Shown here piece after piece: positions 26,783 through 59,025 of a stretch of 64,000 nucleotides of DNA (the stretch's first letter is position 1; each line of letters starts with the position of its first letter). The notes below the pieces were generated by a model. It searched no databases and was not told where the DNA came from. It saw only the letters and a program-made list of their open reading frames with translations. The position numbers and the translations under genes are program-made. Origin of the DNA: Candidatus Pacearchaeota archaeon (GTDB lineage: Archaea; Nanobdellota; Nanobdellia; Pacearchaeales; GW2011-AR1); NCBI GenBank assembly GCA_050303855.1, contig JBNLCO010000010.1:30207-94206 (forward strand), read 5' to 3'.

Positions 26783-27979
26783 ATGCATAGAGAAGAATAT
26801 ATTAAAGATATGAAGGAAGTGGGGGCAAAATCTCTTTCCTATTTGGATAAGTTTCTAAAAAGTAAAATCCAAGATAAAGAACTTTTTGAAACAATAACTC
26901 TTTTTTTGAAAAAAAGGGAAGATGCTATCGCAAGACCTTGGATTGTAAAAAATTCTTTCAGTTTTTTTTCTGGTAAAGAAGCAGATACAAAAAGTTTGCC
27001 TATGTCAAGCGTTGTAGAGTTAGAGAATATTTCAAATTATCAAAGCAACGCAGTTTATGACAATAAGTATATAATCAAAACGGAAAAAGACAAGGTTCTA
27101 CAAGTTTTAGCTTCATTTATCACAAGAGATTTAGTAGATGACTTAATCTTTGAAGAATACAAAGAAAAAACAGCTGTTTTGTTATCTGGTGTTTTAAGAA
27201 AAATCGATTTTTATGACCAAACAGGACAATACAAAGAATTTCAGAAATTGTTTTACGAAGAAGGATACTCATTTGAAGATTTAGAAAAATATACTCTAAC
27301 TTATTTAGAAAAAGCTATGTTTTATGGGGGTGCTTGGGTTGGGGGGTTAATCTTGGCAGGAGCAATTTTAAGTTTTGATAAATTTCCTGATAATGAAGAC
27401 TTAAAACATCTTGTTAAATATGGGATTTTAACGGGAACTGCAATGAATATAATAAATGATATAAGCGATTATGCTCTTTTTGAAAAACAAAAAAGTAAGT
27501 TTGGTATGCACTACAAAAAGCCGGAAGACCAATTTAGAGATATTGAAAATAAGAGAATCCTAATTCCTTTCTTTTATACAATTTATCAAGCAAAAAAGAA
27601 AAATAAAAAGGAATATGATAAATTGTTGAGTTTTTTAGGAAAAGAATTGTCTATGGAAGATAAAAAAGAGATTTTTGAATTGATGAAAAAATATAATGGA
27701 TTAAGCTATGCTTACAGTATTGCTAAACTTTTGAATAATAGGGCTTTAAAGGAATTGGAAAAAGTTAAAGGAAAAACAAAAGAAATTGATTTTTTCAAAA
27801 TTTTATCATCAATAGTGGAGAACAATAAATTTTTACACTATTACCGTTCTGAAAATGCGGTAAAAAAGGTTACATTAAATCCAAATGTAAAGAAAAAAAT
27901 CAAATCACATTTTTTTTATGATGCTGGGGTTGCTAATGGTATGGCATCAGACTTCTTCGGAAGTTTGAGAGCTTTGTAG
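26783..27979 (+). CDS. isoprenoid/polyprenyl synthetase-like protein with degenerate Asp-rich motifs
   Basis: 398 aa. GTAMNIINDISDYA parallels the SARM GxxFQIxDDxxD with ND in place of DD. An upstream VVELENIS aligns weakly with the FARM. The fold is all-alpha. Confidence 0.35.
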   Translation: MHREEYIKDMKEVGAKSLSYLDKFLKSKIQDKELFETITLFLKKREDAIARPWIVKNSFSFFSGKEADTKSLPMSSVVELENISNYQSNAVYDNKYIIKTEKDKVLQVLASFITRDLVDDLIFEEYKEKTAVLLSGVLRKIDFYDQTGQYKEFQKLFYEEGYSFEDLEKYTLTYLEKAMFYGGAWVGGLILAGAILSFDKFPDNEDLKHLVKYGILTGTAMNIINDISDYALFEKQKSKFGMHYKKPEDQFRDIENKRILIPFFYTIYQAKKKNKKEYDKLLSFLGKELSMEDKKEIFELMKKYNGLSYAYSIAKLLNNRALKELEKVKGKTKEIDFFKILSSIVENNKFLHYYRSENAVKKVTLNPNVKKKIKSHFFYDAGVANGMASDFFGSLRAL

Positions 27980-27984
27980 CTCAT

Positions 27985-28032
27985 GCAGGTTCGAATCCTG
28001 TCCCCAGCGCTTTCATTAAAAACTCGCTGGGG
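27985..28032 (+). other. tRNA T-arm/acceptor-like fragment plus GC-rich hairpin immediately after the CDS stop
   Basis: GCAGG-TTCGAAT-CCTGT is a canonical T-stem-loop, followed by CCCCAGCG. The complement CGCTGGGG lies 15 nt downstream, giving an 8-bp stem. Confidence 0.35.
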
Positions 28033-46023: not shown

Positions 46024-48765
46024 ATGGTAAATTTATCTGAAGAGCAGACAAGAGAGCAATACATTGATGTAGCTTTGAAAGAAGTTGGTTGGCTTGATAA
46101 ATATATGAAGAAGGAAATTAACTCCGTTAAATCTAATTTTGATAAGATGGATTTTAAGCCAGTTAGTGGTGGAATTGAGAAGGGAGAAGATAGATTTATT
46201 GATTACCTTTTGACTGACGACCAAGAGAGGCCTATTGGGATTATTGAAGCAAAGAGATTTAGTTTAGATGCAGAGAAAGGAACAATTCAAGCGAGTGTTT
46301 ATGCTAAAGATATTGAAAAACAAATAGGATTTGTCGTTCCAATTTTTTTGACAAATGGGAAAGAATGGTATTTGAAAGAGGAAGGTTATCCCACAAGAAA
46401 GATTTCGGGTCCTTTTTCACAGAAAGATTTGGATAGAAGATTTCATTTACAGAAAGTCAGGAAAAATTTGTCGAATATTGAAGTACCTCAGGACATAGTA
46501 GATAGGGCTAAAAGTGTCGAAGTTGTGAGGACGATTCTGGAGCACTTAGGTGAAGGACATAGAAACGCTTTGATAAATATGGCTACCGGAACAGGAAAGA
46601 CAAGAGTTGCAATGGCAATAATAAAAAGCTTGATTCATGCAGGTTTTGTTACAAATGTTTTATTTGTTGTGGATAGAATTTCTTTAGGGAGACAAGCTAA
46701 AGCATCTTTTGATGAATTTTTATCTGGAAATCCTTCGAGTTTATTGAATGAAGAAGGAGAGTTTGATTTGAATAAAAATGTTTATGTCTCGACTGTTCAG
46801 ACTTTGATGGCAAAAGATTCTGAGGTTAGCAGGAAATTTCAGAAATTTAGTCCCGGATTTTTTGACTTAATTGTTTTTGATGAGGCTCACAGGTCTTATT
46901 ATGATAAACAGAATTTAATTTTCAAGTATTTTGATTCGATAAAACTTGGATTGACTGCAACTCCTTCGAAAAGTGAAGATAGAAATACTTATGATTTGTT
47001 TGGTTGTGATAGGGGTAAGCCTACAGCTTCTTATACTTACGACGAAGCTGTTAGTGACGAAGTTTTAGTTCCGTATGATGCTCAAATAATTTCTACAAAC
47101 GTTACAGAGCTGGGAATCAGAGGAATAGAATTAGATAAGGAATTGAAAACCGATTTGATCAAACAAGAGGAAGATCCGGATAATTTCGAAGTTCCGGGCA
47201 AGAAATTTGCTAAATATTTTACTGATGAAAAAACCAATGAATTGATTATTAGAGAATTTCTGAATAGGTGTTATAAAGATGAATCAGGAAAACCTTGCAA
47301 GACAATTTTCTTTTGCGTCAATGTAGATCATGCTAAGGCATTAGAGAAAACATTTAGGAAAATTTCTCCCAAATTAGCTGAAAAAGATGTTAGTTTAATT
47401 GTTTCTTCAAGAGATTATTATATGACTGAAGTTGAAAATTTTAAGAAAGATTCAAGTCCGAGAATTGCTTTATCCGTAGGTGTTTTGGATACCGGGGTTG
47501 ATATTCCAGAGGTTTGTAATCTAGTTTTTGTAACACCTGTTTTTTCACACACAAGATTTTGGCAGATGCTTGGGAGAGGAACAAGAAGTATTTCTGCATG
47601 CAAGCATAAAGATTGGCTTCCAGTATTAGAAGAAGTCTATCATGACAAAAGGGATTTTAGGATTTTAGATTTTAAGTTTGGAGATTTTTCAAATGTTAAT
47701 GAACATCAATTAGAGAAAAGTGATAGAAGTAATTCGGGAGAAGATATTAGGATTAAGATATTTAATAAAGAGTTGGATTTACTTGGAAAGAAATTGACAG
47801 ATAAGGAGAGGGCAATTGTTGAGAAACATGTTCTTAATGAGATTAAAAAAATTGATCAGAAATCTTTTATTGTTAGAGACAAAGTTCCGATGATAAAGAA
47901 TTTGGTTTCCAAAAAGTATGATTTGATTGAGCATATTGAAGAAATTCAAAGAGAACTTTCTCCTTTAGTGAGATTTTCTGAATATGGGGATGGAAAAGTC
48001 CAGACATTTATTTCAAAATGTATTGATTTGTTCAGTTTTGTTAAGGCTGGAGATAATGAGGCTGTTGAGAGTGTTAAAGAATTTACAATTGAGAGACTTG
48101 AAAATATTTGGTCTCAGGATTTGACAGAAGTTAAGAATAATAAAGATTTGATTTTAGATATTATGCAGGATAAGTTTTGGGAAGAGTTAGATTTTGAAGA
48201 TATTGATATGTTGATAATTAAAATTTCTCCTTTAATGAGATATTATCAGAAGGAGAAGAAGATGTTGATAAGAATTGATAAGATTGATGAACTTAGAAGT
48301 GTCGAGAGGAAGGTCATGGAAGTTAAGGAAAATCCTAATTTGGAAGAATTTAAGAAAAGTGAGCTTGCACAGAAGATGATTAAGGAAGGGGTTACTTCTG
48401 GGGAGCTTAAGGAGATTGAATCTAAATTGAGGTATTTGAATCCTTCTTGGAGTATTGATAATGTCCAGAAAGTTAAGGATTATATTTTGTTTTTGAGAGA
48501 TATTTTAGATTTGCATGATTTGCCTGACCCGGAGATTATGATTAGGAGAGAATTTGAGAGGTTGATTATACTGGATAATCATAATTTGAATTCAGAGCAG
48601 ATAAGATTTTTGAGGATGCTTGGAACTTTCTTTGCGATTCACAAGAATATTGATAAGAAGGATATTGTTGCACATCCTTTAGGAGATGAAAACCCCCTAA
48701 GTAAGTTTGGAGCTCAGGAGTTAGAAGGAATTCTGGAGAAGGTTAAGGGGATTAGGATGCGGTAG
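46024..48765 (+). CDS. hsdR: type I restriction enzyme R subunit (HsdR)
   Basis: 913 aa. HsdR N-domain. Helicase motif I MATGTGKTRV, motif II VFDEAHRS, and later helicase C-domain blocks. Confidence 0.85.
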   Translation: MVNLSEEQTREQYIDVALKEVGWLDKYMKKEINSVKSNFDKMDFKPVSGGIEKGEDRFIDYLLTDDQERPIGIIEAKRFSLDAEKGTIQASVYAKDIEKQIGFVVPIFLTNGKEWYLKEEGYPTRKISGPFSQKDLDRRFHLQKVRKNLSNIEVPQDIVDRAKSVEVVRTILEHLGEGHRNALINMATGTGKTRVAMAIIKSLIHAGFVTNVLFVVDRISLGRQAKASFDEFLSGNPSSLLNEEGEFDLNKNVYVSTVQTLMAKDSEVSRKFQKFSPGFFDLIVFDEAHRSYYDKQNLIFKYFDSIKLGLTATPSKSEDRNTYDLFGCDRGKPTASYTYDEAVSDEVLVPYDAQIISTNVTELGIRGIELDKELKTDLIKQEEDPDNFEVPGKKFAKYFTDEKTNELIIREFLNRCYKDESGKPCKTIFFCVNVDHAKALEKTFRKISPKLAEKDVSLIVSSRDYYMTEVENFKKDSSPRIALSVGVLDTGVDIPEVCNLVFVTPVFSHTRFWQMLGRGTRSISACKHKDWLPVLEEVYHDKRDFRILDFKFGDFSNVNEHQLEKSDRSNSGEDIRIKIFNKELDLLGKKLTDKERAIVEKHVLNEIKKIDQKSFIVRDKVPMIKNLVSKKYDLIEHIEEIQRELSPLVRFSEYGDGKVQTFISKCIDLFSFVKAGDNEAVESVKEFTIERLENIWSQDLTEVKNNKDLILDIMQDKFWEELDFEDIDMLIIKISPLMRYYQKEKKMLIRIDKIDELRSVERKVMEVKENPNLEEFKKSELAQKMIKEGVTSGELKEIESKLRYLNPSWSIDNVQKVKDYILFLRDILDLHDLPDPEIMIRREFERLIILDNHNLNSEQIRFLRMLGTFFAIHKNIDKKDIVAHPLGDENPLSKFGAQELEGILEKVKGIRMR

Positions 48766-48850
48766 TTCGTAATTTATACAAAAAGCGAACAATCATGTCT
48801 ATAATGTAGACCATACAAATATTTATATACTGGAATGTTATTGGTTTTGT

Positions 48851-49255
48851 ATGGTTAGCAAAACTGACGCAGATTATAGGACTGTTTCAACGAAGATAAA
48901 AAGAGATCCGACGTTTTTGGATTTTGATCAAATCTGCAAACAAGAAGGAAAAACACATAGTTCAAAGATTAAGGAATTAATTGAAAAAGATAATGCGAAA
49001 AAGAAGAGACCTTATTTTTTTGCTGGAAATATTCGAGTAAAGTATAATCCTGCTTTGAATAATTATTCGGTTAAAGCTCTTCTTGAAGACGGAGAAGAAG
49101 TTGTAATCTGGGAAAATCTCTCTGAAGAGTTTGTTAAATCTTTGAGAAATGAAATTGGTTCTGCGGTTGAAATGAGAAATCATTTCGTTCATGGTCTTGG
49201 GAAGGATGGCAAGGTTGCAATTCCCGGAGAAGAAGTTGGAGGTGAAGGGGAATGA
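48851..49255 (+). CDS. hypothetical protein (first gene of block embedded in type I RM locus)
   Basis: 134 aa and soluble. Its stop overlaps the next start. Confidence 0.35.
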   Translation: MVSKTDADYRTVSTKIKRDPTFLDFDQICKQEGKTHSSKIKELIEKDNAKKKRPYFFAGNIRVKYNPALNNYSVKALLEDGEEVVIWENLSEEFVKSLRNEIGSAVEMRNHFVHGLGKDGKVAIPGEEVGGEGE

Positions 49256-49569
49256 GTAAGCTACTTTGGACAATTTTTGTTACTGCGCTACTTGCAGGAA
49301 TTTTCTTTGGAGTATGGATAAAAACAGGGATTAATCCGGATCCTCAATCTCAATTGATTGATGTAGGAAAATTGTTTTGCAAAAGTGTTCCTAACAATCC
49401 TGCTTCTTCAAGTTGTTCCCTTAACATGGCTTTATTAGGTTTAGTTGCAACTCTTGGAGGGATATTTGAAATTGTTTCTTTAGTTTCAAAGTCAAAAAAT
49501 GTCTGGTTAGGAATTATAACTTATGTTGGAGGTTTTTTACTAGGAATAATCTTAGTTTTGGCAAGTTAA
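49252..49569 (+). CDS. small membrane protein (3 TM)
   Basis: 105 aa. Translationally coupled to its neighbours. Confidence 0.4.
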   Translation: MSKLLWTIFVTALLAGIFFGVWIKTGINPDPQSQLIDVGKLFCKSVPNNPASSSCSLNMALLGLVATLGGIFEIVSLVSKSKNVWLGIITYVGGFLLGIILVLAS

Positions 49570-49570
49570 A

Positions 49571-50035
49571 ATGAAGAAAAGTAAGAATAATTTGAAAGCA
49601 AATATATTGGGAGTTTATCTTCTTTTAATTTTAATCATCTTTGTTTCCATAGGAATAAGAATATATTTGAATCAACCTCAAAATAAGCTTCTTTTATCTT
49701 TGGTAATAATTGCTTGTTCTGGAGGAATTGGAGGAACCCTCTATTCTATAAGAGGATTTTATCAAAATTTAGGTCAAGGAATTTTTAATTTTGACAACTG
49801 GGTTTGGTGGTATATTTTTAGACCTGTAATGAGTTCAGCCATAGGAGTTTTTGTTTATTTCTTGATTGTAGGAGGGTTGTTGAGTATAGGGAATATTTCT
49901 GAAGTTAATTATTCGAAAGGGCTTATGTTTTATTCAGCAATTGCATTTTTAGCAGGATTTTCATTTACCCAATTTGCAAATAAATTGGAAGAAATTGCCT
50001 CGACAATTTTCTCAAAGAAGGAGGAAAAGAAATGA
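49571..50035 (+). CDS. membrane protein (4 TM)
   Basis: 154 aa. Its stop overlaps the next start. Confidence 0.4.
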   Translation: MKKSKNNLKANILGVYLLLILIIFVSIGIRIYLNQPQNKLLLSLVIIACSGGIGGTLYSIRGFYQNLGQGIFNFDNWVWWYIFRPVMSSAIGVFVYFLIVGGLLSIGNISEVNYSKGLMFYSAIAFLAGFSFTQFANKLEEIASTIFSKKEEKK

Positions 50036-50886
50036 CAATGACTATTAAAATTTGGGATGTTTTGCAAGGACTTGCAGTCTGGATCAGGACTCCTAATGGA
50101 AAAGATATTGTTATTGATGCAGGAGTTCATTCAAATGGATTTAGCCCGATTTATAATTTGAATAAAAAACACAATGTAGCTAGAATTGATTATGCAATAA
50201 TTACTCACCCTCATAAAGATCATATCGATGAAATTGAAAATTTAGTTTATCTTAATCCAGAAGTTTTGAGAATTCCAAAACATCTTAATGAAGAGGATAT
50301 TTTATGGGATCAAATAAGAGACAAAGATAAAAAATTGTTTGAAGCTTTTTTTGATCTTAAGAAAAGATATACTTCAAATGTCCAACCTAATAATGATCCT
50401 AGTAAACCTGAGAATTATGGGGGAATTAAAATCAAGACTTTTTGTTCAGAGAATTGTTCCAGAACTAATTTAAACAACCATAGCATTGTAACTCTCTTAG
50501 AATATGCTGGAAGTAAGATCTTGATTCCGGGAGATAATGAAGAAGAATCCTGGGATGAACTTTTTAGAAGAAAAGATTTTGTGGAATCTATAAAAGGAAC
50601 AAATATTCTTGTAGCGTCGCATCATGGCAGAAAAAGTGGACATCATTTAGGGCTTTTTGATTATATCAAGCCTAGTTTAATTATAATCTCCGATGGGCCT
50701 GCAAAACCGACTAATGCCGTAAGTGATTATTCCCTAAATGTTCACGAAGAGGGATGGCTTATCCATAAGCCAGATAATACTTCAGAAAAAAGAAAAATTC
50801 TAACTACGAGAAAAGATGGTATGATAAAAATCGATTGTTATTCCAATTCTGGGACTAATTATTGTATCGTTACAAAATCAAAATGA
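50032..50886 (+). CDS. metallo-beta-lactamase-fold protein, ComEC/Rec2 C-terminal-domain-like
   Basis: IWDVLQGLAVWIRTPNGKDIVIDAG (compare ComEC LDVGQGDA...ILIDTG), ITHPHKDHI, and LVASHHGRKSG (compare ComEC HHGS). Confidence 0.55.
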   Translation: MTMTIKIWDVLQGLAVWIRTPNGKDIVIDAGVHSNGFSPIYNLNKKHNVARIDYAIITHPHKDHIDEIENLVYLNPEVLRIPKHLNEEDILWDQIRDKDKKLFEAFFDLKKRYTSNVQPNNDPSKPENYGGIKIKTFCSENCSRTNLNNHSIVTLLEYAGSKILIPGDNEEESWDELFRRKDFVESIKGTNILVASHHGRKSGHHLGLFDYIKPSLIIISDGPAKPTNAVSDYSLNVHEEGWLIHKPDNTSEKRKILTTRKDGMIKIDCYSNSGTNYCIVTKSK

Positions 50887-52100
50887 GAACACAACAAAAA
50901 ACTAAACCTGAATGGAAAGAAATTGGACTTGGAGAAATCTTGGAATTTATTAGAAATGGTTTGAATATAAGTCAGTTTGAAGAGGGCAATTATCCAATTA
51001 CCAGAATTGAAACCATTTGGCATTCTAAAATTGATACAAAGCGAGTTAAATATTGCAATCCCTCAGATGAACAAATCAATAATTACTCGTTAAAAGAAGG
51101 AGATATTTTATTTAGCCATATTAATAGTCCAACCCATATAGGAAAGACTGGAATTTATGAAGGTATTCCAAAAATAATTATCCATGGAATAAATTTACTT
51201 TTATTGAGACCAAAGAGAACTTTGGTTTACCCAAAATATCTGGATTATTTTTTGAAAACAAAAAATATAAGGAAATTCTTTGAAATTAGATGTAAGAAAG
51301 CGGTTAATCAAGCAAGTTTGAATCAAAAAGCAATAACTTCAATAAAAATCCCCCTCCCATTCCTCGACGGAAAACCAGACTTAGAAACACAAAAACAAAT
51401 CGTCGCAGTTTTGGAAAAAGCTGAAAGTTTGAAACAAAAACAGAAAAGAGTTTTGGAACTTTATGACGAATATTTGAAGAGTGTTTTTTGGGAGATGTTT
51501 TTAAAAGATAAAGAAAATTGGGAAGAAAAAAGTTTGGGTGAAGTTGCTAAATTATCAATGGGTGGAACTCCTTCCACAATTGTAGAAAGTTATTGGAAAG
51601 ATGGAACAATTAATTGGATGAAATCTGGAGATATTAAAGGAGATTTTATTTTTGAAATCCCAAATAAGATAACTGAAGAAGGTTTCAAAAACTCCAACGC
51701 AACTATTTATCCTATTGGAACGGTTGTAATTGCATTAAATGGTCAAGGAAAAACAAGAGGTACAACTTCAATACTAAAAGTTGAAACTACAAGTAATCAG
51801 TCTGTCGTTGGAATAATGGTGGATAAGGAAAAAATCATTTCTGAATATTTACATTTTAATCTAAAATTAAGATATAACGAATTAAGAAACCTAACAGGTG
51901 ATGATGCAAGAACAGGATTAAATCTGACAATTTTAAGAAACCTAAAAGTCCCTCTCCCCCCTCTCCCCATCCAACAAACATTCGCAAACATCGTTGAGAA
52001 AGTTGAGAAATTAAAAGAAAAACAAAAGAAAAGTCTTGAAGATTCTGAGGAATTATTTAATGCTTTGATGCAGAGGGCTTTTCGGGGGGAGTTGAGTTAA
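50862..52100 (+). CDS. hsdS: type I restriction-modification specificity subunit (HsdS)
   Basis: 412 aa with two target-recognition halves. Each is followed by a conserved coiled-coil repeat (IKIPLPFLDGKPDLETQKQIVAVLEKAESLKQKQ / LKVPLPPLPIQQTFANIVEKVEKLKEKQ). Confidence 0.8.
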   Translation: MYRYKIKMRTQQKTKPEWKEIGLGEILEFIRNGLNISQFEEGNYPITRIETIWHSKIDTKRVKYCNPSDEQINNYSLKEGDILFSHINSPTHIGKTGIYEGIPKIIIHGINLLLLRPKRTLVYPKYLDYFLKTKNIRKFFEIRCKKAVNQASLNQKAITSIKIPLPFLDGKPDLETQKQIVAVLEKAESLKQKQKRVLELYDEYLKSVFWEMFLKDKENWEEKSLGEVAKLSMGGTPSTIVESYWKDGTINWMKSGDIKGDFIFEIPNKITEEGFKNSNATIYPIGTVVIALNGQGKTRGTTSILKVETTSNQSVVGIMVDKEKIISEYLHFNLKLRYNELRNLTGDDARTGLNLTILRNLKVPLPPLPIQQTFANIVEKVEKLKEKQKKSLEDSEELFNALMQRAFRGELS

Positions 52101-52101
52101 T

Positions 52102-52605
52102 ATGAATTGGGAAGAAATAAAAAAGGAACTTGCAAAAACTTGGATATTGTTTTTATTTTTTGGTTTGTTCTTTTTAATTATAAGTGCATTCATTAATGCA
52201 GGAATAAATAATTGGGTAAATAGTAAGTCCCAAGGTCCTCCATGCAGGATAGATATTCCCATAGAGGAATTTAGTGTTGAAAATAATACCAACTTTAATT
52301 TAGAATATTTGTTCATAAATCTTAGAGATAAAAATTTACAGATTGAAGGTATCTCAGCGTTTTGTTATTGGAGGTCGGAGGAGGATTTGAACAAAAATAT
52401 AAAATCTGTAACTAACCCTCCTTCAATAGACCAAATTTCTACACCTCAAGAACTACCTCAAATAGAAGCTTCTAAGTCTCAAGTTAAAGTTGCCTCATGT
52501 AAATCCCCGGAATATTTAGGAGATTACAAAATAAGAATAATTGTACAAACTACAGATGGATCTTGTGAAGGAAATGTTATCATGGAGGTTAAAAATGACT
52601 CTTAG
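52102..52605 (+). CDS. membrane-anchored extracytoplasmic protein
   Basis: 167 aa with an N-terminal TM helix and four Cys in the ectodomain. Confidence 0.35.
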   Translation: MNWEEIKKELAKTWILFLFFGLFFLIISAFINAGINNWVNSKSQGPPCRIDIPIEEFSVENNTNFNLEYLFINLRDKNLQIEGISAFCYWRSEEDLNKNIKSVTNPPSIDQISTPQELPQIEASKSQVKVASCKSPEYLGDYKIRIIVQTTDGSCEGNVIMEVKNDS

Positions 52606-53020
52606 TCCAAGAATGATGATGTTTTTAGGAATTGTTCTGGTCATTGTTTTATTCGGAGGAAGTATTTGGGATACAATCGATAATTCAATACAATCTGTAA
52701 TAAGCGGTCCAGAATATTGTTTTACAGATATCTCCCAATCAGAAATCGCAGTTGCTGCTCAAGGAGTTTCAGTAAAATATACAAAAACAGAAGGGGACGA
52801 ACTTTGTTTTAGAACAAAAGATACCTCAATCGTTGAAAGATTAAATCAACAAATTCAGGATAGAAAACTACAAGAACAATTGGCAGAAACAGAAGCAAGA
52901 AGACAATTTTGGAATGAAACTTTTCCCAAATTATTTTTATTTACTCTTGTAGCAATCGTTTTAATAATATTAATAATCTCTTTGTCAAATAGAAACAATA
53001 ATTACGGAGGTTGGCCTTAA
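52597..53020 (+). CDS. bitopic membrane protein (N- and C-terminal TM helices)
   Basis: About 141 aa from MTLSPRMMMFLGIVLVIVLF. The table ORF begins at 52541. Confidence 0.3.
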
Positions 53021-53308
53021 ATGAAAAATAAAACCTCTCCAAAAAACTCCCCAGAAAAATATTATATCTGTCCAGAATGTGGAGAATTGTCTACTTATAG
53101 TCTACAAATTGAAAGTGCATCTCAAGGAGGGTTGCCTTATTGTTATTGTGAATTTAATAATGGAAGAATCTTCATATCATATAAAAGAATAAACAAAAAA
53201 TTATGGCAAGAGTTAAAAGATTTGAAAACTGATAAATTACGTCTAAAAGCTTATTTGAAATATAAAGTTGAAAAGGGGAAAACTAAAAATGATAAAAAAC
53301 AACATTAA
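53021..53308 (+). CDS. small zinc-ribbon protein
   Basis: 95 aa with CPECG...CYCEF cysteine pairs. Confidence 0.35.
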   Translation: MKNKTSPKNSPEKYYICPECGELSTYSLQIESASQGGLPYCYCEFNNGRIFISYKRINKKLWQELKDLKTDKLRLKAYLKYKVEKGKTKNDKKQH

Positions 53309-54011
53309 TTGTGATTTATTTCAAACAGGTTATCTTGATGAAAGTGGGGATGATGGAAGAAAAGGGAGTAAGTGGTTTATTATGGCTTATATTTGTACAA
53401 AAGATGGAAAGAAGATTGCAAAGATTCTAAAAAAAACAAAAGAACAATTAAGAAGAACAAAAAAAGGAGAGAGATGGTTGAATAAACTTGGAGGAGAGAT
53501 AAAATTTGCAGGTTTTCCAGATGAAGGATTAAGACTAAAATTGTTGGAAAGTTTGTCCAAAATTTGTTTTGATATCAGGTTTATTGCAATACAAAAGGAG
53601 GGTCAAAATATTCCTGAATCTGAGAAAGAACAAATATTATTTGATTTACTTGCTGAGAGTTTTATGAATCATAAAAACATGCCTTCAAAAATTATTGCCG
53701 ATAAAGATTATTTTAGAAATAAGAAGCTTTGTTCGCTTGCCGTGAAGAATTATAAAGAGGAGATTTATGGAGACGGAAATGAAACAAAGTTTTCATTCGA
53801 GGTTTTTTTACTTGATGAAGGAAAGGAAAGGAAAGACTATGATTTGGTTATAAAAATAAGGCATGAGAATTCTAAAGAGCATCCAGAACTTCAAGCAGTT
53901 GATTTAGTTAGTGGATCTTTGTTTCAGGAATTTGAAAATAAGGATAAAACATATACAGACATTTTAAGGAAAAATATTAAAATAAAAGGAGTTGTCAAGA
54001 AAATAAAATGA
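53268..54011 (+). CDS. DUF3800-like protein
   Basis: 247 aa. The N-terminus TGYLDESGD resembles the DUF3800 Y-x-DESG start motif. Confidence 0.4.
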   Translation: MKRGKLKMIKNNINCDLFQTGYLDESGDDGRKGSKWFIMAYICTKDGKKIAKILKKTKEQLRRTKKGERWLNKLGGEIKFAGFPDEGLRLKLLESLSKICFDIRFIAIQKEGQNIPESEKEQILFDLLAESFMNHKNMPSKIIADKDYFRNKKLCSLAVKNYKEEIYGDGNETKFSFEVFLLDEGKERKDYDLVIKIRHENSKEHPELQAVDLVSGSLFQEFENKDKTYTDILRKNIKIKGVVKKIK

Positions 54012-54186
54012 TCCAAGCATTACAAAACCCTCCTACTTGTCGATCTTGTCCACATAAGCAGGCAAGCATCCCCGAAGGTACTCCTTTCGAGAGGGATTTT
54101 ATATGTAATAGTAATTATAATTATAACAACTTTTTAAACTTTTCGTGTAATGTTTTCAAAGTAACAACACAAAGGAGATATTAAAT

Positions 54187-55644
54187 ATGTTAGATACAGA
54201 ACTTAAATCAAAAATAAAGAAATTATGGGATAGATTTTGGAGTGGAGGAATTACCAACCCTATTTATGCAATTGAGCAAATGTCATATCTGCTTTTTATG
54301 AGAAAATTAGAAGATGAGGATTCCAAAAGAATACAAGAAGCTAATTTTACTGGAGAGAAATACAATTCTATTTTCAAAGATTACGAAGACTGCAAATGGT
54401 CTTCATGGACTAAGAAAAACCCCGATGACATATTAAGTTTTGTTAGAAATAATGTTTTTCCATTTATGGCAAATTTAGGAGGAAAAGGTTCTCTATATTC
54501 ACAATATATGAAAGAAGCAAATTTTGGAATCCCTACTTCTTCGTTGCTAATTGAAGCTGTCAATATAATTAATGATATGCACATAAAAGAACAGAATCAG
54601 GATACCCAAGGAGATCTTTATGAGTTCTTGCTTTCTGAATTGCAATCTTCAGGGAAAAATGGTCAGTTTAGAACTCCAAGGCATATTATTCGGATGATGG
54701 TCGAAATTGCAAATCCTAAAATTGGAGATAGGATTTTGGATCCAGCCTGTGGAACAGCGGGATTTTTAGTTAATGCTTACCAATACATTTTGGAGAAAAA
54801 CAAAAGGGAAGGGGTTAGCACACTTGATATAAATAAAAAGAAAATTCTTGACGAAGAATCACTTTTTGGATATGATATTGATCAAACCATGGTAAGAATT
54901 TCTTTAATGAATTTGATGATGCATGGAATAAAAAATCCAAATATTGAAAGCATAAACTGCCTTTCCAGAATTGGAGACGAGAAAATTAAGGAAGATTTCT
55001 ACGACGTTGTTTTAGCAAATCCTCCATTCAAGGGAAGTATAAATCAATCAGAGATAAGTGATAGGTTTAGAATTAAGACAAAAAAGACTGAAATTTTATT
55101 TTTAGAATTAATGTTTCATTCATTATCTCCAGGAGGAAAGTGTGCAGTTATTGTTCCGGATGGAGTTTTGTTTGGAAATTCAAATGCTCATAAGAATATA
55201 AGGGAATTAATATTGAAGAAATGCCGATTAGATGCAGTTATAAAAATGCCTTCCGGAGTTTTCAAACCTTATGCGGGAGTTTCCACAGCAGTCTTATTTT
55301 TTGTAAAGGGAGAGCCCACAAAAAAAGTTTGGTTTTATGACATGCAATCTGATGGTTTCAGTTTAGATGATAAAAGAACGATTATTGGTGATGGAAAAGG
55401 AGATATTCCGGATATTCTAGAAAGATTTGAAAATAGGTTTGATGAAAAAAATGAAAACCGCTCAGAAAAACATTTTTTTGTTCCAATAGAAGAAATAGAA
55501 AATAATGATTTTGATTTAAGCATTTCAAAGTATAAGAAAATAGAATATGAAGAACCGGAATATAGAAAATCTTCCGAAATCTTGAAAGATTTAGAAAAGG
55601 AAAACAAAGACATTGGAGAGTTGATAAAAGGTTTGAAGGATTAG
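54187..55644 (+). CDS. hsdM: type I restriction-modification N6-adenine DNA methyltransferase (HsdM)
   Basis: 485 aa. HsdM N-domain. Motif I LDPACGTAGFLV. Motif IV LANPPFKGS. Confidence 0.85.
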   Translation: MLDTELKSKIKKLWDRFWSGGITNPIYAIEQMSYLLFMRKLEDEDSKRIQEANFTGEKYNSIFKDYEDCKWSSWTKKNPDDILSFVRNNVFPFMANLGGKGSLYSQYMKEANFGIPTSSLLIEAVNIINDMHIKEQNQDTQGDLYEFLLSELQSSGKNGQFRTPRHIIRMMVEIANPKIGDRILDPACGTAGFLVNAYQYILEKNKREGVSTLDINKKKILDEESLFGYDIDQTMVRISLMNLMMHGIKNPNIESINCLSRIGDEKIKEDFYDVVLANPPFKGSINQSEISDRFRIKTKKTEILFLELMFHSLSPGGKCAVIVPDGVLFGNSNAHKNIRELILKKCRLDAVIKMPSGVFKPYAGVSTAVLFFVKGEPTKKVWFYDMQSDGFSLDDKRTIIGDGKGDIPDILERFENRFDEKNENRSEKHFFVPIEEIENNDFDLSISKYKKIEYEEPEYRKSSEILKDLEKENKDIGELIKGLKD

Positions 55645-56309
55645 GTCTTTTCAACCCAACTCCACCAACCTTCTTCTTCTGAACCAATTATAACATGATC
55701 TAAGACTTTTATTCCGAGAAGTTTTCCGGACTCTATGAGTTGTTTTGTAATTTCGAGATCTTCTTGACTTGGAGAAGGATTTCCGGAAGGATGATTGTGA
55801 ATTAGAATTATTTTTGCTGAAGAGTTTTTTATTGCTGGTTTGAAAACTTGTCTTGGGTCTAGAATTGCTGCGTCTAGGACTCCTTTTGATATTAGTTCTT
55901 CGTTTATTATGTTGTTTGCATTGTTTAGCATTAAAACATAGAAATTTTCTTGTTTTTCGTCTTTTAGTCTTTCTTTGAAGTGATTGTAAACATCTTTTGC
56001 TGAGGTTATCTTCTTTATTGGTGATTTTGAATCATTATATCTCTTTCCCAATTCTGAAACTGCAAGTATTTGCATTGCCTTTGTTTGGCCTATGCCTTTT
56101 ATATTCTGAAGTTCTTTTAGGGAGCAATCAAACAATTTTTCTAAGGTATATTCTTTTATCAATCTGTTGGACATATCTGTGACGTTTTCTCCAATTGTTC
56201 CGGTTCTTAGAATTATTGCAAGAAGTTCGGCTTCGCTTAGGGATTCTTTTCCATGATGTAAAAATTTCTCTCTTGGTTTTGAAGAATTAGGCATGTCTGC
56301 AATTTTCAT
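55641..56309 (-). CDS. radC: RadC-like JAB/MPN domain protein
   Basis: JAMM motif HNHPSGNPSPSQEDLEIT. N-terminal helix-hairpin-helix region. Confidence 0.75.
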   Translation of the reverse strand: MKIADMPNSSKPREKFLHHGKESLSEAELLAIILRTGTIGENVTDMSNRLIKEYTLEKLFDCSLKELQNIKGIGQTKAMQILAVSELGKRYNDSKSPIKKITSAKDVYNHFKERLKDEKQENFYVLMLNNANNIINEELISKGVLDAAILDPRQVFKPAIKNSSAKIILIHNHPSGNPSPSQEDLEITKQLIESGKLLGIKVLDHVIIGSEEEGWWSWVEKT

Positions 56310-56352: not shown

Positions 56353-59025
56353 TTAATTAAAACTATCCAAAAACTCACCATAGTCAAATTCATCGACTTT
56401 TTTTCCTTCGGATTTCTTTTTGATTTCATCCATGTAGACTTTATGCATTCTCTGTAGGAATTCCTGTTTGTCTTCCATTTTCATTAAATCCATGTGGCCT
56501 TGTAAGAGGAGATTTAGGGCGAATGGGCTTGGGAGTTTTACTGTGTGGTAGCTTAAGTTAAGCTTATTTTCTTTTATTAGATTTAGAACGAGCTTTGTAC
56601 GTTCTATATCCATCAGATCTTCCAAAACTTCTCTCTTTGCTTCTTTTAGAATCGGGAATTCTTTTGAGATTTTTTTGACGCTAGATATTAGGAAGTGTGA
56701 TTTCATGTGTTGTTTCTTTACAGACTTTGTATTTCCTTTGTAAGTTCTTAGAATCATTAAACCACGTGTAGCACAGTGTCTGAATTTTCTTGTTAGAACG
56801 TCTGTTTTTTCTATTGCTTCTTTCAAAATTTCTTCAACATTTTCTGGAGTTAATTTTTCAAATGCCTTTTCTATGTTTAGATTTTCTGAGCTTAGGTAGA
56901 AACCTCTATCAGAAATTCCTATTTCAACATCTCTCTTTGAAGTCTTTGATGAAGTTGACATAACAAAAGCAAGAGCTCTTGAGAGAGCGTCATTTACTCT
57001 ACGGCCATACATAGAATGCACTAAGATATATTTCTTATCATCACGTTCATCTGTATACTTTTCAATAACTAAATTTTTATCATCTGGGATTTCAGAGAAA
57101 TGATATTGTTGATAGAAATAAGTGTAAATTTCTTCTGCAACAGAATCTGAAACATAAGTGTGTTTCTTTATGAAATCCTTTACAGCTTTTTTGGTTGTTT
57201 TGGACTTTTGGAATAATTCTTTTATTTTTCTTCTAAATGAAGAGATTTCTAAAGCAGAATCAAAACTTAAAGGAAGAGTTTCAGAGAACCATGAAGGAAT
57301 TGTTGGGTTTCTTGTTGGAGCGGGATGAACGTAAAGATTCATACCTCTTGAATAAGAATAAGAGTATTTACTTCCTCCAAGAACAAAAACATCCCCTTTA
57401 TGCATTCTATTCATGAAAGACTCATCAATTACACCAATCTTTTGACCTTCTCCTCCACCAGCTAGTTTAACTGTTACGAAAGATTCTTCAGGTATTGTTC
57501 CAATATTTGTTAGATATAGAACTCTTGCCATTTTACCTCTCTTTCCAATTGTTCCTCCATCTGTTTCTGGATCATACCAAAGCTTTGCATAAACTCTATC
57601 TTTTTCCAAATCATATTCCCCAGAAAGGTAAGATATTACTGAAAAGAAGTCTTCTTTGGTTAGATCTTGATAACAATAACTTTTTCTTAATAGATTTAGT
57701 AGATCGTCTAATTTCCATGGATTGTTTATGGCCATACCAAATAATGTTTGAGATAGAACGTCTAAAGCATTTTTAGGGAAATGAATATTGTCTATTTTTC
57801 CTTCATACATTTCTTTTTGGATAACAGAACACTCTACTAAATCATCTCTATCCATAACAATAAATCTTCCTTTAGCAGTTTCATGAAGTTTATGTCCTGC
57901 TCTTCCTACTCTCTGGAGGGCACGGGAAGATGCTTTTGGACTCCCCATAAGAATTACCAAATCAATAAAACCAATATCAATCCCTAATTCTAAAGAAGTT
58001 GAACAAACAACCACCTTAAGCTTCCCTGAACGGAGATTTTCTTCAATTTCAAATCTATGACCTTTACTTAGTGAAGAGTGATGCGCTGCAATGTTTTCAT
58101 CTGTGTAATCGGTTGGGAATTTGTCTTTAAGATAGTTTACAACCCTTTCAGTTGCAGATCTTGTATTTGTGAAAATTAAAGTTGTTTTGTGTTCTCTTAC
58201 AAGTTCATCAATTAAATGATACATTTGTATGTGGGGGGTTCTTGATTTGATTAGATCTTTTGCGGGAATTAGTACGTCTAAGTCTAATTTCTTATTTGCT
58301 TTTACTTTTGCAATTTTTACTTTTCTTTTAGAATCTATACCTACAAGGAATTTTGCTACTTCTTCCAAAGGTTCAACTGTTGCACTTAAACCAATCTTTG
58401 TTGGAACTTTATTGGTGAGGTGATTAAGTCTTTCGAGACTTAAACTTAGGAAAACCCCTCTTTTGTTTCCTAAAGAGTGAATTTCATCAACAACACAATA
58501 TTCTACTTCAGTAAAAGATTCTACAAATTTCTTAGTTGTTAGAACAATTGCCAAAGATTCTGGAGTAGTTATTAGAATATGGGGAGGATTTCTTGCCATT
58601 TTGGCTTTTTCAGAAGTTGTTGTATCTCCCGTTCTTAATCCTACTCTAATGTCTTGGAGTTCAATGTCTTTTGATTTTGCTAATTCGTTGATTTCTTGTA
58701 ATGGCTCTATCAAGTTTTTGTGGATGTCATTGTTTAGAGCTTTTAATGGAGAAATGTAGACTGCATATACTTTCTTTTGTAGTTCTTTTTTTTCTGCTAA
58801 GGTTACTAAGTTATTTAGTATTGAGAGGAAAGCTGTAAGAGTCTTACCTCCTCCAGTTGGTGCTGAAATTAGAATATCTTCTTTATTATGGACTGCTGGA
58901 ACACCGAATTTCTGAGCATCTGAGAAATCTTTAAACTTTGAGAAGAACCATTCCCGAATAAGAGGGTGTAAAATTTTCTGTATTTCTGCCTTTGTTGAGG
59001 GCTTTGCTACTGAAACTTTTGTCAT
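56353..59025 (-). CDS. lhr: Lhr-like large ATP-dependent DEAD/DEAH-box helicase
   Basis: 890 aa. Motif I APTGGGKT. Motif II VVDEIHSL. Motif VI QRVGRAGH. A long C-terminal region as in the Lhr core. Confidence 0.75.
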   Translation of the reverse strand: MTKVSVAKPSTKAEIQKILHPLIREWFFSKFKDFSDAQKFGVPAVHNKEDILISAPTGGGKTLTAFLSILNNLVTLAEKKELQKKVYAVYISPLKALNNDIHKNLIEPLQEINELAKSKDIELQDIRVGLRTGDTTTSEKAKMARNPPHILITTPESLAIVLTTKKFVESFTEVEYCVVDEIHSLGNKRGVFLSLSLERLNHLTNKVPTKIGLSATVEPLEEVAKFLVGIDSKRKVKIAKVKANKKLDLDVLIPAKDLIKSRTPHIQMYHLIDELVREHKTTLIFTNTRSATERVVNYLKDKFPTDYTDENIAAHHSSLSKGHRFEIEENLRSGKLKVVVCSTSLELGIDIGFIDLVILMGSPKASSRALQRVGRAGHKLHETAKGRFIVMDRDDLVECSVIQKEMYEGKIDNIHFPKNALDVLSQTLFGMAINNPWKLDDLLNLLRKSYCYQDLTKEDFFSVISYLSGEYDLEKDRVYAKLWYDPETDGGTIGKRGKMARVLYLTNIGTIPEESFVTVKLAGGGEGQKIGVIDESFMNRMHKGDVFVLGGSKYSYSYSRGMNLYVHPAPTRNPTIPSWFSETLPLSFDSALEISSFRRKIKELFQKSKTTKKAVKDFIKKHTYVSDSVAEEIYTYFYQQYHFSEIPDDKNLVIEKYTDERDDKKYILVHSMYGRRVNDALSRALAFVMSTSSKTSKRDVEIGISDRGFYLSSENLNIEKAFEKLTPENVEEILKEAIEKTDVLTRKFRHCATRGLMILRTYKGNTKSVKKQHMKSHFLISSVKKISKEFPILKEAKREVLEDLMDIERTKLVLNLIKENKLNLSYHTVKLPSPFALNLLLQGHMDLMKMEDKQEFLQRMHKVYMDEIKKKSEGKKVDEFDYGEFLDSFN

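Follow-up and report, generated by a model that had tools for sequence, protein, structure and literature searches.

Genes embedded in type I restriction-modification (RM) loci are mostly known or candidate defence genes, and in 96.7% of cases they point the same way as the system that hosts them (Payne et al. 2024, bioRxiv 10.1101/2024.01.29.577857). Using genes nested within type I RM, BREX or DISARM systems, that study derived 145 PDC candidates, among them PDC-M48, a two-gene cassette (FAM_01875>>FAM_00178) of candidate status only. According to PADLOC, PDC-M48A is a membrane protein of about 165 amino acids (aa) and PDC-M48B a protein of the metallo-beta-lactamase (MBL) fold; PDC-M48 was not mentioned in any paper found by our literature search. 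Embedded defence in RM systems is already described, and the locus analysed here, a type I RM operon at positions 46024 to 55644 of a 64,000-nucleotide stretch from a Candidatus Pacearchaeota archaeon (contig JBNLCO010000010.1; this whole stretch is hereafter called the window), opens no new category. The RM operon is intact; we consider it reasonably probable that its inserts are separable, exchangeable and probably antiviral cargo, and that it represents an RM lineage with two cargo slots.

With the defence systems that Payne et al. (2024) describe as embedded in type I RM, BREX, DISARM and Hma loci, and with PrrC in EcoprrI, the window shares co-directional extra genes between the hsd genes and multi-gene cassettes. 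As in that survey, its cargo also occurs in non-embedded form elsewhere, and it includes a member of the survey's own PDC-M48B family. The premise of the initial annotation of this DNA, namely that canonical type I systems hold at most one inserted gene, is outdated in the light of the same work. The locus departs from the described pattern in that two slots are filled, and in that it belongs to an archaeal lineage (nine loci) with a conserved split layout and a gene of one particular type, designated g1. From PrrC it differs in that the window cargo comes without evidence of control by the RM complex.

Judged by its sequence, the three-subunit type I RM system is complete. The gene hsdR (46024..48765, + strand) encodes an apparently intact, EcoAI/type IB-like restriction subunit of 913 aa, which matches ResIII (E = 1.4e-37), SWI2_SNF2, Helicase_C and EcoEI_R_C, PADLOC REase_I (2e-95) and, under the equivalog cut-off of that model, the EcoAI family of NCBIfam (NF046051; 2.6e-69). 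Its GTGKT and DEAH motifs and an N-terminal, PD-ExK-like IIEAKR are intact in the translation. The specificity subunit, with two target-recognition domains, is encoded by hsdS (50883..52100, +; Methylase_S, 4.8e-36 in two stretches; PADLOC Specificity_I, 3e-62, with many Specificity_I models matched), and an N6-adenine methyltransferase subunit of 485 aa by hsdM (54187..55644, +; N6_Mtase, 1.7e-64; HsdM_N, 1.4e-12; PADLOC MTase_I, 6.3e-174). DPACGTAGF and NPPF are present in the HsdM translation, and GGAG lies about 10 nucleotides (nt) ahead of the hsdM ATG. Orthologues of HsdR are 50-62% identical in the related loci L082, L088, L095, L096 and L097 (L numbers denote our sequence contexts throughout), and those of HsdM 67-69% identical in L082, L088, L096 and L097.

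All three hsd genes are intact, lie on the + strand and are interleaved with densely packed genes, in the order hsdR - g1 - g2 - g3 - MBL (g4) - hsdS - g5 - g6 - g7 - DUF3800 (g8) - RNA - hsdM. The same gene order was obtained from the list of open reading frames (ORFs) and from independent gene calls on an identical metagenomic contig (L001). Reading of the junctions revealed that g1 and g2, g3 and MBL, and MBL and hsdS overlap by ATGA, that g2/g3, hsdS/g5 and g6/g7 are 0-1 nt apart, and that g5/g6 and g7/g8 overlap slightly; there are just two real gaps, of 85 nt between hsdR and g1 and of 175 nt between g8 and hsdM. The picture of co-directional, tightly packed or overlapping genes drawn by the initial annotation thus stood, except that its first block, announced as five genes, contains four (g1, 48851-49255; g2, 49252-49569; g3, 49571-50035; g4, 50032-50886). 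The MBL stop does overlap the hsdS start, as had been stated, when ATG 50883 (ATGA) is taken as that start; this choice is likely, and the listed TTG at 50862 less plausible, given the gene call in L001 and the junction sequence. Similarly, g6 most likely starts at 52595, since GGAGGT stands 6 nt upstream and the position agrees with the starts of its homologues, and g8 most likely starts at 53289. The cargo of the window totals eight protein genes and one RNA gene, with both slots occupied. A composition scan gave a uniform G+C content of about 32% over the locus and its flanks, and thus no compositional hint of recent import.

To set the locus in context, we assembled related RM loci drawn from the surroundings of g3, MBL and g6 homologues and from a metagenome scan with DUF3800. 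Layouts were established by clustering all ORFs, and lengths were taken from gene calls where available and otherwise from our own ORF calls. The nine related archaeal loci follow a common scheme, hsdR | g1 - slot 1 - hsdS - slot 2 - hsdM. With other cargo genes given by the length of their products in aa, and TM standing for transmembrane, the individual layouts are hsdR - DUF3800 - RNA - g1 (57 aa) - TM-g3 fusion - MBL - hsdS - 367 - 150 - g6 - hsdM - RadC in L082; hsdR - g1 - 62 - 75 - 135 - g3 - MBL - hsdS - g6 - hsdM in L088; hsdR - g1 - 101 - 210 - hsdS - 138 - g6 - hsdM - RadC in L115; hsdR - g1 - 62 - 209 - 247 - hsdS - 188 - g6 - hsdM in L119; hsdR - DUF3800 - RNA - g1 - 94 - 258 - 377 - hsdS - 273 - hsdM in L096; and hsdR - DUF3800 - RNA - g1 - 207 - hsdS - 100 - 228 - hsdM in L097. 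L093 and L095 are partial loci, also with hsdR, g1 and the DUF3800-RNA pair. All these loci have genes between the hsd genes, and the cargo varies from one to the next, to the point that four members of the RM family (L115, L119, L096 and L097) carry different cargo and no MBL. The g1 family is the sole accessory common to all nine, and slot 2 includes membrane proteins, of unrelated sequence, in each of the seven complete loci (window, L082, L088, L096, L097, L115 and L119). The two blocks, each of which had been taken for one unit, resolve in this comparison into several independent modules and a conserved, regulator-like g1.

A first module is the pair g3-g4. The ComEC-like MBLs of Avs, Lamassu and Hachiman are Zn-dependent nucleases of double-stranded DNA that act as death effectors, and two linkers keep them inactive until these are removed by a partner protease (PMC12642450, PMC12799240). 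The product of g4 (50032..50886, +), a standalone ComEC-type MBL-fold hydrolase of 284 aa, falls on the same ComEC-like branch as the MBL nucleases of Avs1/Avs2/Avs4, Lamassu, Hachiman (HamM) and DRT. A hidden Markov model (HMM) search against the defence-system database PADLOC, which had been proposed as a check, matched g4 over its full length to PDC-M48B (PDLC04675; E = 1.7e-91, residues 3-277 on profile positions 5-285 of 291), with weaker matches to the LmuA (Lamassu), RTasMBL (DRT) and Avs1a MBL models. PADLOC-DB holds four separate PDC-M48B models, so that the family is already heterogeneous. The initial call of a ComEC-like MBL hydrolase was also borne out by TIGR00361 ComEC_Rec2 (4.4e-15; 54.9 bits against a cut-off of 190), of which the MBL part is matched (positions 442-633 of 663), and by the best sequence matches in the PDB, which are ComEC MBL domains (2e-16). 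A homology search returned 693 homologues of g4, and the motifs HPHxDH, GDNE, HHGR and SD are invariant among 23 diverse ones; within the phage collection, the MBL relatives are distant only (24-27% identity). The g4 product is therefore best described as a probable Zn-dependent DNase.

As in ComEC/Rec2, whose MBL domain provides the best solved-structure and NCBIfam match, a metal-dependent nuclease would here be joined to a membrane component; unlike ComEC/Rec2, g4 stands alone, with neither a competence channel domain nor an oligonucleotide/oligosaccharide-binding (OB) fold, and its context is mobile and defence-like. The contrast with the protease-activated MBLs is of another kind. No protease domain was found by domain library scans in any gene of 46024-55644, and g4 has neither an adjacent protease nor a sensor, a membrane protein being its partner instead. 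At 284 aa, against 322-392 profile positions in LmuA, RTasMBL and Avs1a (g4 residues 1-76 and 101-221 aligned), g4 probably lacks the two inhibitory linkers of VcMBL.

The partner, g3 (49571..50035, +), encodes a four-helix membrane protein of 154 aa, with 172 homologues of 50-85% identity in archaea and bacteria and 26 invariant columns that include GGxGG and WWYxFRP. Its AlphaFold model (predicted local distance difference test, pLDDT, 85.7; predicted template-modelling score, pTM, 0.77) has five helices, four of them predicted membrane helices and one C-terminal. Fold searches against the PDB and viral structures returned generic helical-bundle overlaps only (E > 0.08), and g3 has no Pfam match. 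The pair resembles PDC-M48 in the full-length B match and in a multi-pass membrane protein encoded directly upstream, co-directional and overlapping; it differs in that g3 matches no PDC-M48A model and is not detectably homologous to that family. A remote homology of g3 to PDC-M48A was rejected, as there was no HMM match even at E <= 10 and hhalign gave a probability of 0.2% against PDC-M48A-type partners.

Exchange of the membrane partner was apparent when MBL relatives were surveyed at 80 loci of species-representative genomes. For about 45 of these, the best of the ORFs that immediately precede the MBL gene in the same direction encodes 140-360 aa with 2-4 predicted TM segments. When upstream ORFs of 130-300 aa were clustered by blastp, groups of 26 (PDC-M48A-like) and 4 were obtained in addition to the g3 type (window, Alcanivoracaceae L029 and Thermodesulfobacteriota L031), the remainder being unclustered. 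Four members of the group of 26 were scanned against PDC-M48A, two matching strongly (1.8e-66 and 8.3e-65) and two weakly; a further member, L059, had no PDC-M48A match, and likewise g3 and its relatives. An Allomuricauda MBL that is paired with a true PDC-M48A nevertheless shares 43% identity with the MBL of the window. Among the bacterial PDC-M48A-type partners (L008_up, L045_up, L013_up and L022_up), weak matches to Csx27, a type VI-B CRISPR-associated membrane protein, were seen (E from 1e-4 to 6e-3), and one such partner also weakly matches KwaA; these hint at a membrane-protein fold common to several defence systems.

The gene g3 lies directly upstream of the MBL gene in the window and in L029, L031, L082, L087, L088 and L089. 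Within RM operons the pair occurs in the window, L082 (where g3 carries a fused N-terminal 2-TM extension) and L088, always right before hsdS. Recurrence of inserted genes with RM in other archaea, which had been suggested as a comparative check, is thus seen in two further archaeal RM loci. The pair is equally found outside RM: in Methanoperedens (L087) it adjoins HEPN/MNT and other toxin-antitoxin pairs, in a Nanoarchaeota island (L089) it accompanies MCM, integrase, AAA_21-RloB and Fic, and in bacteria it occurs in the Alcanivoracaceae (L029) and Thermodesulfobacteriota (L031) loci. MBLs with other or uncharacterised upstream partners reside on plasmids, next to a recombinase in Adhaeribacter, and near a restriction endonuclease, a recombinase and BrnTA on a 15.9-kb Methylocystis plasmid. 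Around 28 membrane-protein-MBL pairs, a scan of 150 neighbouring genes picked up GmrSD, AriA, RloB, HEC-06, E1-E2/JAB, mad3, transposases and integrases. Conserved housekeeping synteny, an outcome that had been envisaged, was not observed for the pair, which is patchy, mobile and missing from close RM loci.

Membership of g4 in PDC-M48B, the existence of g3-MBL pairs without RM, and the same RM family carrying other cargo together argue for separate cargo. Of the two readings offered by the initial annotation, that of a separate defence system making use of the RM operon therefore fits better, and that of an effector working with the RM complex fits less well. In a side observation, a cargo family of 209-272 aa with 1-2 TM segments (F23) was found at L089 11218-12036, two genes downstream of g3-MBL in the Nanoarchaeota island, and again at L119 5044-5673, in slot 1 of an RM locus without the MBL, which suggests that cargo genes shuffle between contexts.

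A second module consists of a DUF3800 gene and a small RNA. DUF3800 has an RNase H-like fold, is the effector of type VII retrons and is a partner of a Cas12a2 branch (PMC7736814, PMC10910872); it is associated with eleven unrelated RNA motifs of unexplained function, DUF3800-I to -XI (Weinberg et al. 2017). The product of g8 (53289..54011, +; 240 aa) matches PF12686 above the gathering threshold (1.2e-12; 49.1 bits against a cut-off of 21; profile positions 3-148 of 149), which confirms the earlier label of DUF3800-like, and its translation holds the DE and QxxD motifs (DESGD and ELQAVD). It resembles the retron effectors and the Cas12a2-linked TPR-DUF3800 proteins in its defence-related context; unlike them, it is encoded in an archaeal type I RM operon, with no reverse transcriptase or Cas gene nearby. 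Homologues of 49-77% identity are located right after hsdR in L082, L093, L096 and L097, and after hsdR-g1 in L095.

The gap of 175 nt that separates g8 from hsdM, previously treated as an empty spacer, carries a conserved structured RNA (54013..54145, probably - strand; core helices at 54019-54109, TATA-like box at 54131-54138 and putative transcription factor B recognition element, BRE, at 54139-54145). By blastn, this gap is homologous to the DNA 3' of every DUF3800 relative fetched, at 70-94% nt identity (copies at L082 9609-9744 and, in L091-L101, 3' of each DUF3800 gene), and the identity often exceeds that of the DUF3800 protein, as in L098 (82% nt versus 53% aa). A 58-aa ORF at 54008-54184 was rejected as a gene, as it has no codon-position bias (0.225, 0.222 and 0.212), is frameshifted in L097 and in several copies has no start codon. 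RNAalifold recovered one stem with compensatory changes in 4 of its 5 pairs. Under a three-helix model 93.5% of cells are paired, compared with 37-48% in slid controls, with double changes in 7 pairs and a covariation score that none of 500 shuffles reached; an independent RNAalifold run on the model-based alignment gave 21 pairs, 10 of them with compensatory changes. The corresponding covariance model found 14 sites (E <= 1e-15), all beside DUF3800 genes, and nothing else significant in 1.07 Mb; 12 of these are training copies and two are duplicate contigs, so that the result speaks for specificity and not for new members. A pattern search of viral contigs for the element gave 13 matches, which were unrelated phage sequence and attributed to chance.

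Over the whole region, no Rfam match was obtained at gathering or at E <= 1. Scanning of the short element gave as best model DUF3800-X (RF02984), on the minus strand and over the full model length, with 16.8 bits for the window and 20.2 bits for L094, both under the gathering score of 38.2; the L097 copy had no match to this model. The agreement covers both stems, outer and inner, as well as an unpaired GAAAG. The window element is thus like DUF3800-X RNA in its adjacency to a DUF3800 protein gene, its covarying structure, its stem order and the unpaired GAAAG, and differs from it in an extra covarying hairpin inside the loop of the model and in a score well below the gathering threshold. An assignment to the + strand from U-G pairs was dropped, since the two strands have the same base-pair counts and the minus strand is favoured by promoter orientation and by the DUF3800-X match. 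On that strand a flank of the form cGAAAg-TTTAAAt, in a BRE plus TATA arrangement, is separated from the edge of the motif by about 20-26 nt in all 10 loci, and oligo-T runs follow the motif. The RNA is probably read from the minus strand, and is probably a small RNA of about 100 nt, convergent with DUF3800 (about 54112 to 54013) and of a divergent DUF3800-X type with an enlarged internal hairpin. From locus to locus the DUF3800 gene and the RNA change together between slot 1 and slot 2, and hence behave as one module.

The conserved accessory g1 (48851..49255, +) is the first gene past hsdR, or past an inserted DUF3800 module. It encodes 134 aa, with an N-terminal ribbon-helix-helix (RHH)-like domain and a C-terminal domain without assigned function; the short members of the family (57-59 aa) consist of the RHH-like domain by itself. 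A profile of the N-terminal 55 residues, built from seven members, matched nothing but RHH proteins, all weakly, both in the PDB (AvtR, 8e-4; DinJ, 0.012; ParG, 0.04) and in Pfam (ParG, NikA-like, RepB-reg and RHH_5; ParG, 2.6e-4 for one member). Upstream of the gene we read a putative promoter/operator (48797..48829, +), made up of an inverted repeat, GTCTA-n5-TAGAC at 48797-48811, and a TATA-like TTTATATA at 48822-48829, 21 nt before the g1 ATG. TTTAWAWA stands about 20-30 nt ahead of the ATG in all seven g1-family genes examined, and several of these have an inverted repeat, of locus-specific sequence, immediately upstream of the TATA-like box. A scan for bacterial-type promoters and terminators remained at chance level, its model being not applicable to archaea. 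An identity of the C-terminal part as a HEPN RNase was considered and rejected, as the matches to HEPN_Apea (E = 0.068; 14 bits against a cut-off of 24.4) and Cas13-ApeA (0.0039) are sub-threshold and the RNHFVH motif is not kept in the L097 and L088 homologues.

We take g1 for a probable RHH regulator, with a promoter/operator that is probably of archaeal type and looks autoregulated. An RHH-like g1 with a conserved TATA box and inverted repeats would imply that hsdR is transcribed apart and that g1 heads a transcript running to hsdM. Independent promoters separating the blocks, named earlier as an outcome that would speak against a linked operon, are thus probably present in part, in the form of the TATA-like box and inverted repeat before g1. 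Controller (C) proteins are helix-turn-helix proteins of type II RM systems. Like a C protein gene, g1 would encode a small DNA-binding regulator at the head of the modification or specificity transcript, with an inverted repeat at its own promoter. Unlike the C proteins, g1 looks ribbon-helix-helix, often has an extra C-terminal domain and belongs to a type I operon; the two would be analogous in logic and not homologous.

In slot 2, a recurrent protein is that of g6 (52595..53020, +; about 141 aa), which has two TM segments and a conserved loop of about 75 residues (GPEYC...CFRTKD...NQQIQDRKL...FWNETFP). Its family is narrow and mostly archaeal, with 45 proteins (one named Pacearchaeota) of about 137 aa and 19 invariant columns, two Cys included. 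The gene stands directly before hsdM in L082 (14270-14692), L088 (11966-12367), L115 (8001-8411) and L119 (8001-8414), and thus occupies the slot before hsdM in five loci including the window. It is also found outside RM, in L122 (8001-8405; a region of small ORFs with a type II methylase) and on a Sumerlaeota contig (L123), and ORF clustering did not find it in L096 or L097. These two occurrences and two absences ruled out g6 as an obligate RM subunit. Its AlphaFold model is poor (pLDDT 64), it has no Pfam match, and a PDB profile search gave coiled-coil noise.

These observations bear on the alternative that the cargo is integrated with the RM complex, after the PrrC/EcoprrI model, being silenced by contact with HsdM, HsdS or HsdR and released when a virus inactivates or evades restriction; in a variant, the membrane proteins would position the RM complex where foreign DNA enters. 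The precedent of PrrC and the idea of a backup, considered by Payne et al. (2024), speak for it, as do the ATGA overlap of MBL and hsdS, which suggests translational coupling, the distance of only a few nt from the g6 stop to hsdM elsewhere, the maintenance of g3-MBL at one position in three diverged loci, and the membrane proteins in slot 2 of all seven complete loci, with g6 directly before hsdM in five. On the other hand, g3-MBL pairs exist without any nearby RM gene, the RM lineage also occurs with other cargo, lacking the MBL (L096, L097, L115 and L119) or g6 (L096 and L097), homologues of g6 live outside RM, and DUF3800 and its RNA switch slot between loci. Moreover, the conserved loop of g6 would face outward by the positive-inside rule, away from the RM proteins. 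We regard integration with the RM complex as rather unlikely.

Several points nevertheless weigh against treating the inserts as separable antiviral cargo, or against parts of that reading. In three loci, with HsdR proteins just 50-60% identical, g3-MBL has kept its place immediately before hsdS and overlaps it by ATGA; such stability exceeds what a casual hitch-hiker would display and would also fit a functional link to the RM complex. The flank census was made without a background control, so that 'defence neighbourhood' is a qualitative description only. The gene g3 is found without an MBL gene in L084 and L086, and hence is not dedicated to the MBL. In L084 (10001-11504), which comes from the genome of L082, a g3 paralogue of 68% identity overlaps the gene of a 353-aa protein of no known family and adjoins a cupredoxin gene, away from any RM gene; the g3 homologue of Ulvibacterium (L086) is part of a co-directional gene run including an SMC/AAA_15 ATPase and DUF2779. 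From these two contexts, g3 may be a general-purpose membrane module. It shows neither fold nor sequence likeness to characterised effectors in the PDB, among viral structures or by hhalign, which makes gating by g3 conjectural. For g1, the matches behind the RHH assignment are weak (best E = 8e-4), and base-pair counts leave the strand of the RNA unsettled. Finally, we infer both the promoters and the defence role of the cargo, that of candidate PDC-M48 included, from sequence.

The remaining cargo genes are small and lineage-specific. They comprise g2 (49252..49569, +; 105 aa), a membrane protein gene with about three TM segments, whose position is taken by other small 2-TM proteins in L088 and by the N-terminal 2-TM extension on g3 in L082; g5 (52102..52605, +; 167 aa), with an N-terminal TM anchor, whose position holds unrelated membrane proteins in other loci; and g7 (53021..53308, +; 95 aa), zinc-ribbon-like (CPxC...CxC) with a basic C-terminus, for which a sub-threshold FdhE_central (E = 0.006) is the sole family match. 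No family match was found for g2 or g5, and no homologue of g2, g5 or g7 in the fetched loci, by a search that was not exhaustive. It might be argued that these three, and possibly the C-terminal part of g1, are non-functional remnants or spurious ORFs at a recombination-prone spot, in keeping with their missing homologues and with the non-coding ORF at 54008-54184. We find this improbable, as the ORFs fill the space between conserved genes gaplessly and with typical start/stop overlaps, their G+C and skew match those of their neighbours, and the absence of relatives is weakly established by non-exhaustive searches. The last alternative, that g2-g3-g4 form a ComEC-like device for DNA uptake or scavenging (a membrane channel and a nuclease), useful to a reduced-genome archaeon that imports nucleotides and present in the RM operon by chance, has the ComEC nuclease domains as nearest characterised MBL relatives and the pairing with a multi-pass membrane protein (upstream ORF of 2-4 TM in about 45 of the 80 loci) in its favour, but is the least credible of those considered, as g3 is unlike the ComEC competence channel domain and there is no OB-fold partner, the distribution is patchy and mobile (plasmids, integrase islands, proximity to toxin-antitoxin and restriction genes), the membrane partner is exchanged between unrelated families, which is unusual in a transport machine, and the pair is missing from closely related RM loci and is not in conserved housekeeping synteny.

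Returning to an intact RM operon that carries separable cargo, we propose that, like other type I systems, it methylates the host DNA through HsdM2S and would cut unmethylated DNA of invaders through HsdR. A g1 repressor would bind the inverted repeat ahead of its own TATA box and so set the level of a single g1-cargo-hsdS-cargo-hsdM transcript, independently of hsdR. Together, g3 and g4 would form an autonomous two-gene module, a variant of the PADLOC candidate PDC-M48, in which g3 holds g4 at the membrane or gates it, such that DNA is degraded only upon a membrane-linked infection signal; control of this kind, by tethering or gating, is suggested by the probable lack of inhibitory insertions in g4 and by its having no partner protease. 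The g4 product might attack viral DNA on entry or, in an abortive response, DNA of any origin. With its convergent small RNA, g8 would constitute another module, of protein and RNA, which is independent of g3-g4 and changes slots as a whole, and g2, g5, g6 and g7 would be additional small cargo proteins, mostly of the membrane. Embedding would give the cargo co-expression from the g1 promoter and co-inheritance with RM, and need not imply physical cooperation.

More broadly, and as a tentative suggestion that we hold with less confidence, small-genome archaea might use the type I RM operon as a dedicated carrier of immune cargo, with an RHH controller, two slots refilled by recombination, a DUF3800-RNA antiviral module and the g3-MBL pair as a membrane-gated DNase. 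If so, g3-MBL would represent a new, protease-independent control of ComEC-like defence nucleases, and the RM context would offer a first functional handle on the DUF3800-associated RNAs, unexplained since 2017. A ComEC-like defence nuclease that also comes in a short, protease-free form and swaps unrelated membrane partners would point to a control unlike that in Avs, Lamassu and Hachiman. The presence of DUF3800 with a covarying RNA in RM operons, in several independent arrangements, supports a defence role of the DUF3800 RNA motifs. Archaeal defence genes are much less explored than bacterial ones, and an archaeal RM lineage with a regulator-like gene and two slots could serve as a natural catalogue of candidates.

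Outside the operon, PCNA and Lhr genes lie beside the RM locus; together with relatives named Nanoarchaeota, Pacearchaeota and Methanoperedens, they point to an archaeon with a small genome, probably of DPANN type. A RadC-like JAB-domain gene (55641-56309, minus strand) is convergent with hsdM and is followed by an Lhr-type helicase gene (56353-59025, minus strand). RadC occurs at the matching position in L082, L097 and L115, and may be part of the conserved neighbourhood of this RM lineage. Elsewhere in the window, a tRNA-like gene of 88 nt at 27923-28010 was detected by both Rfam (39.8 bits) and ARAGORN; ARAGORN assigns it no anticodon, and it is possibly an intron-containing archaeal tRNA.

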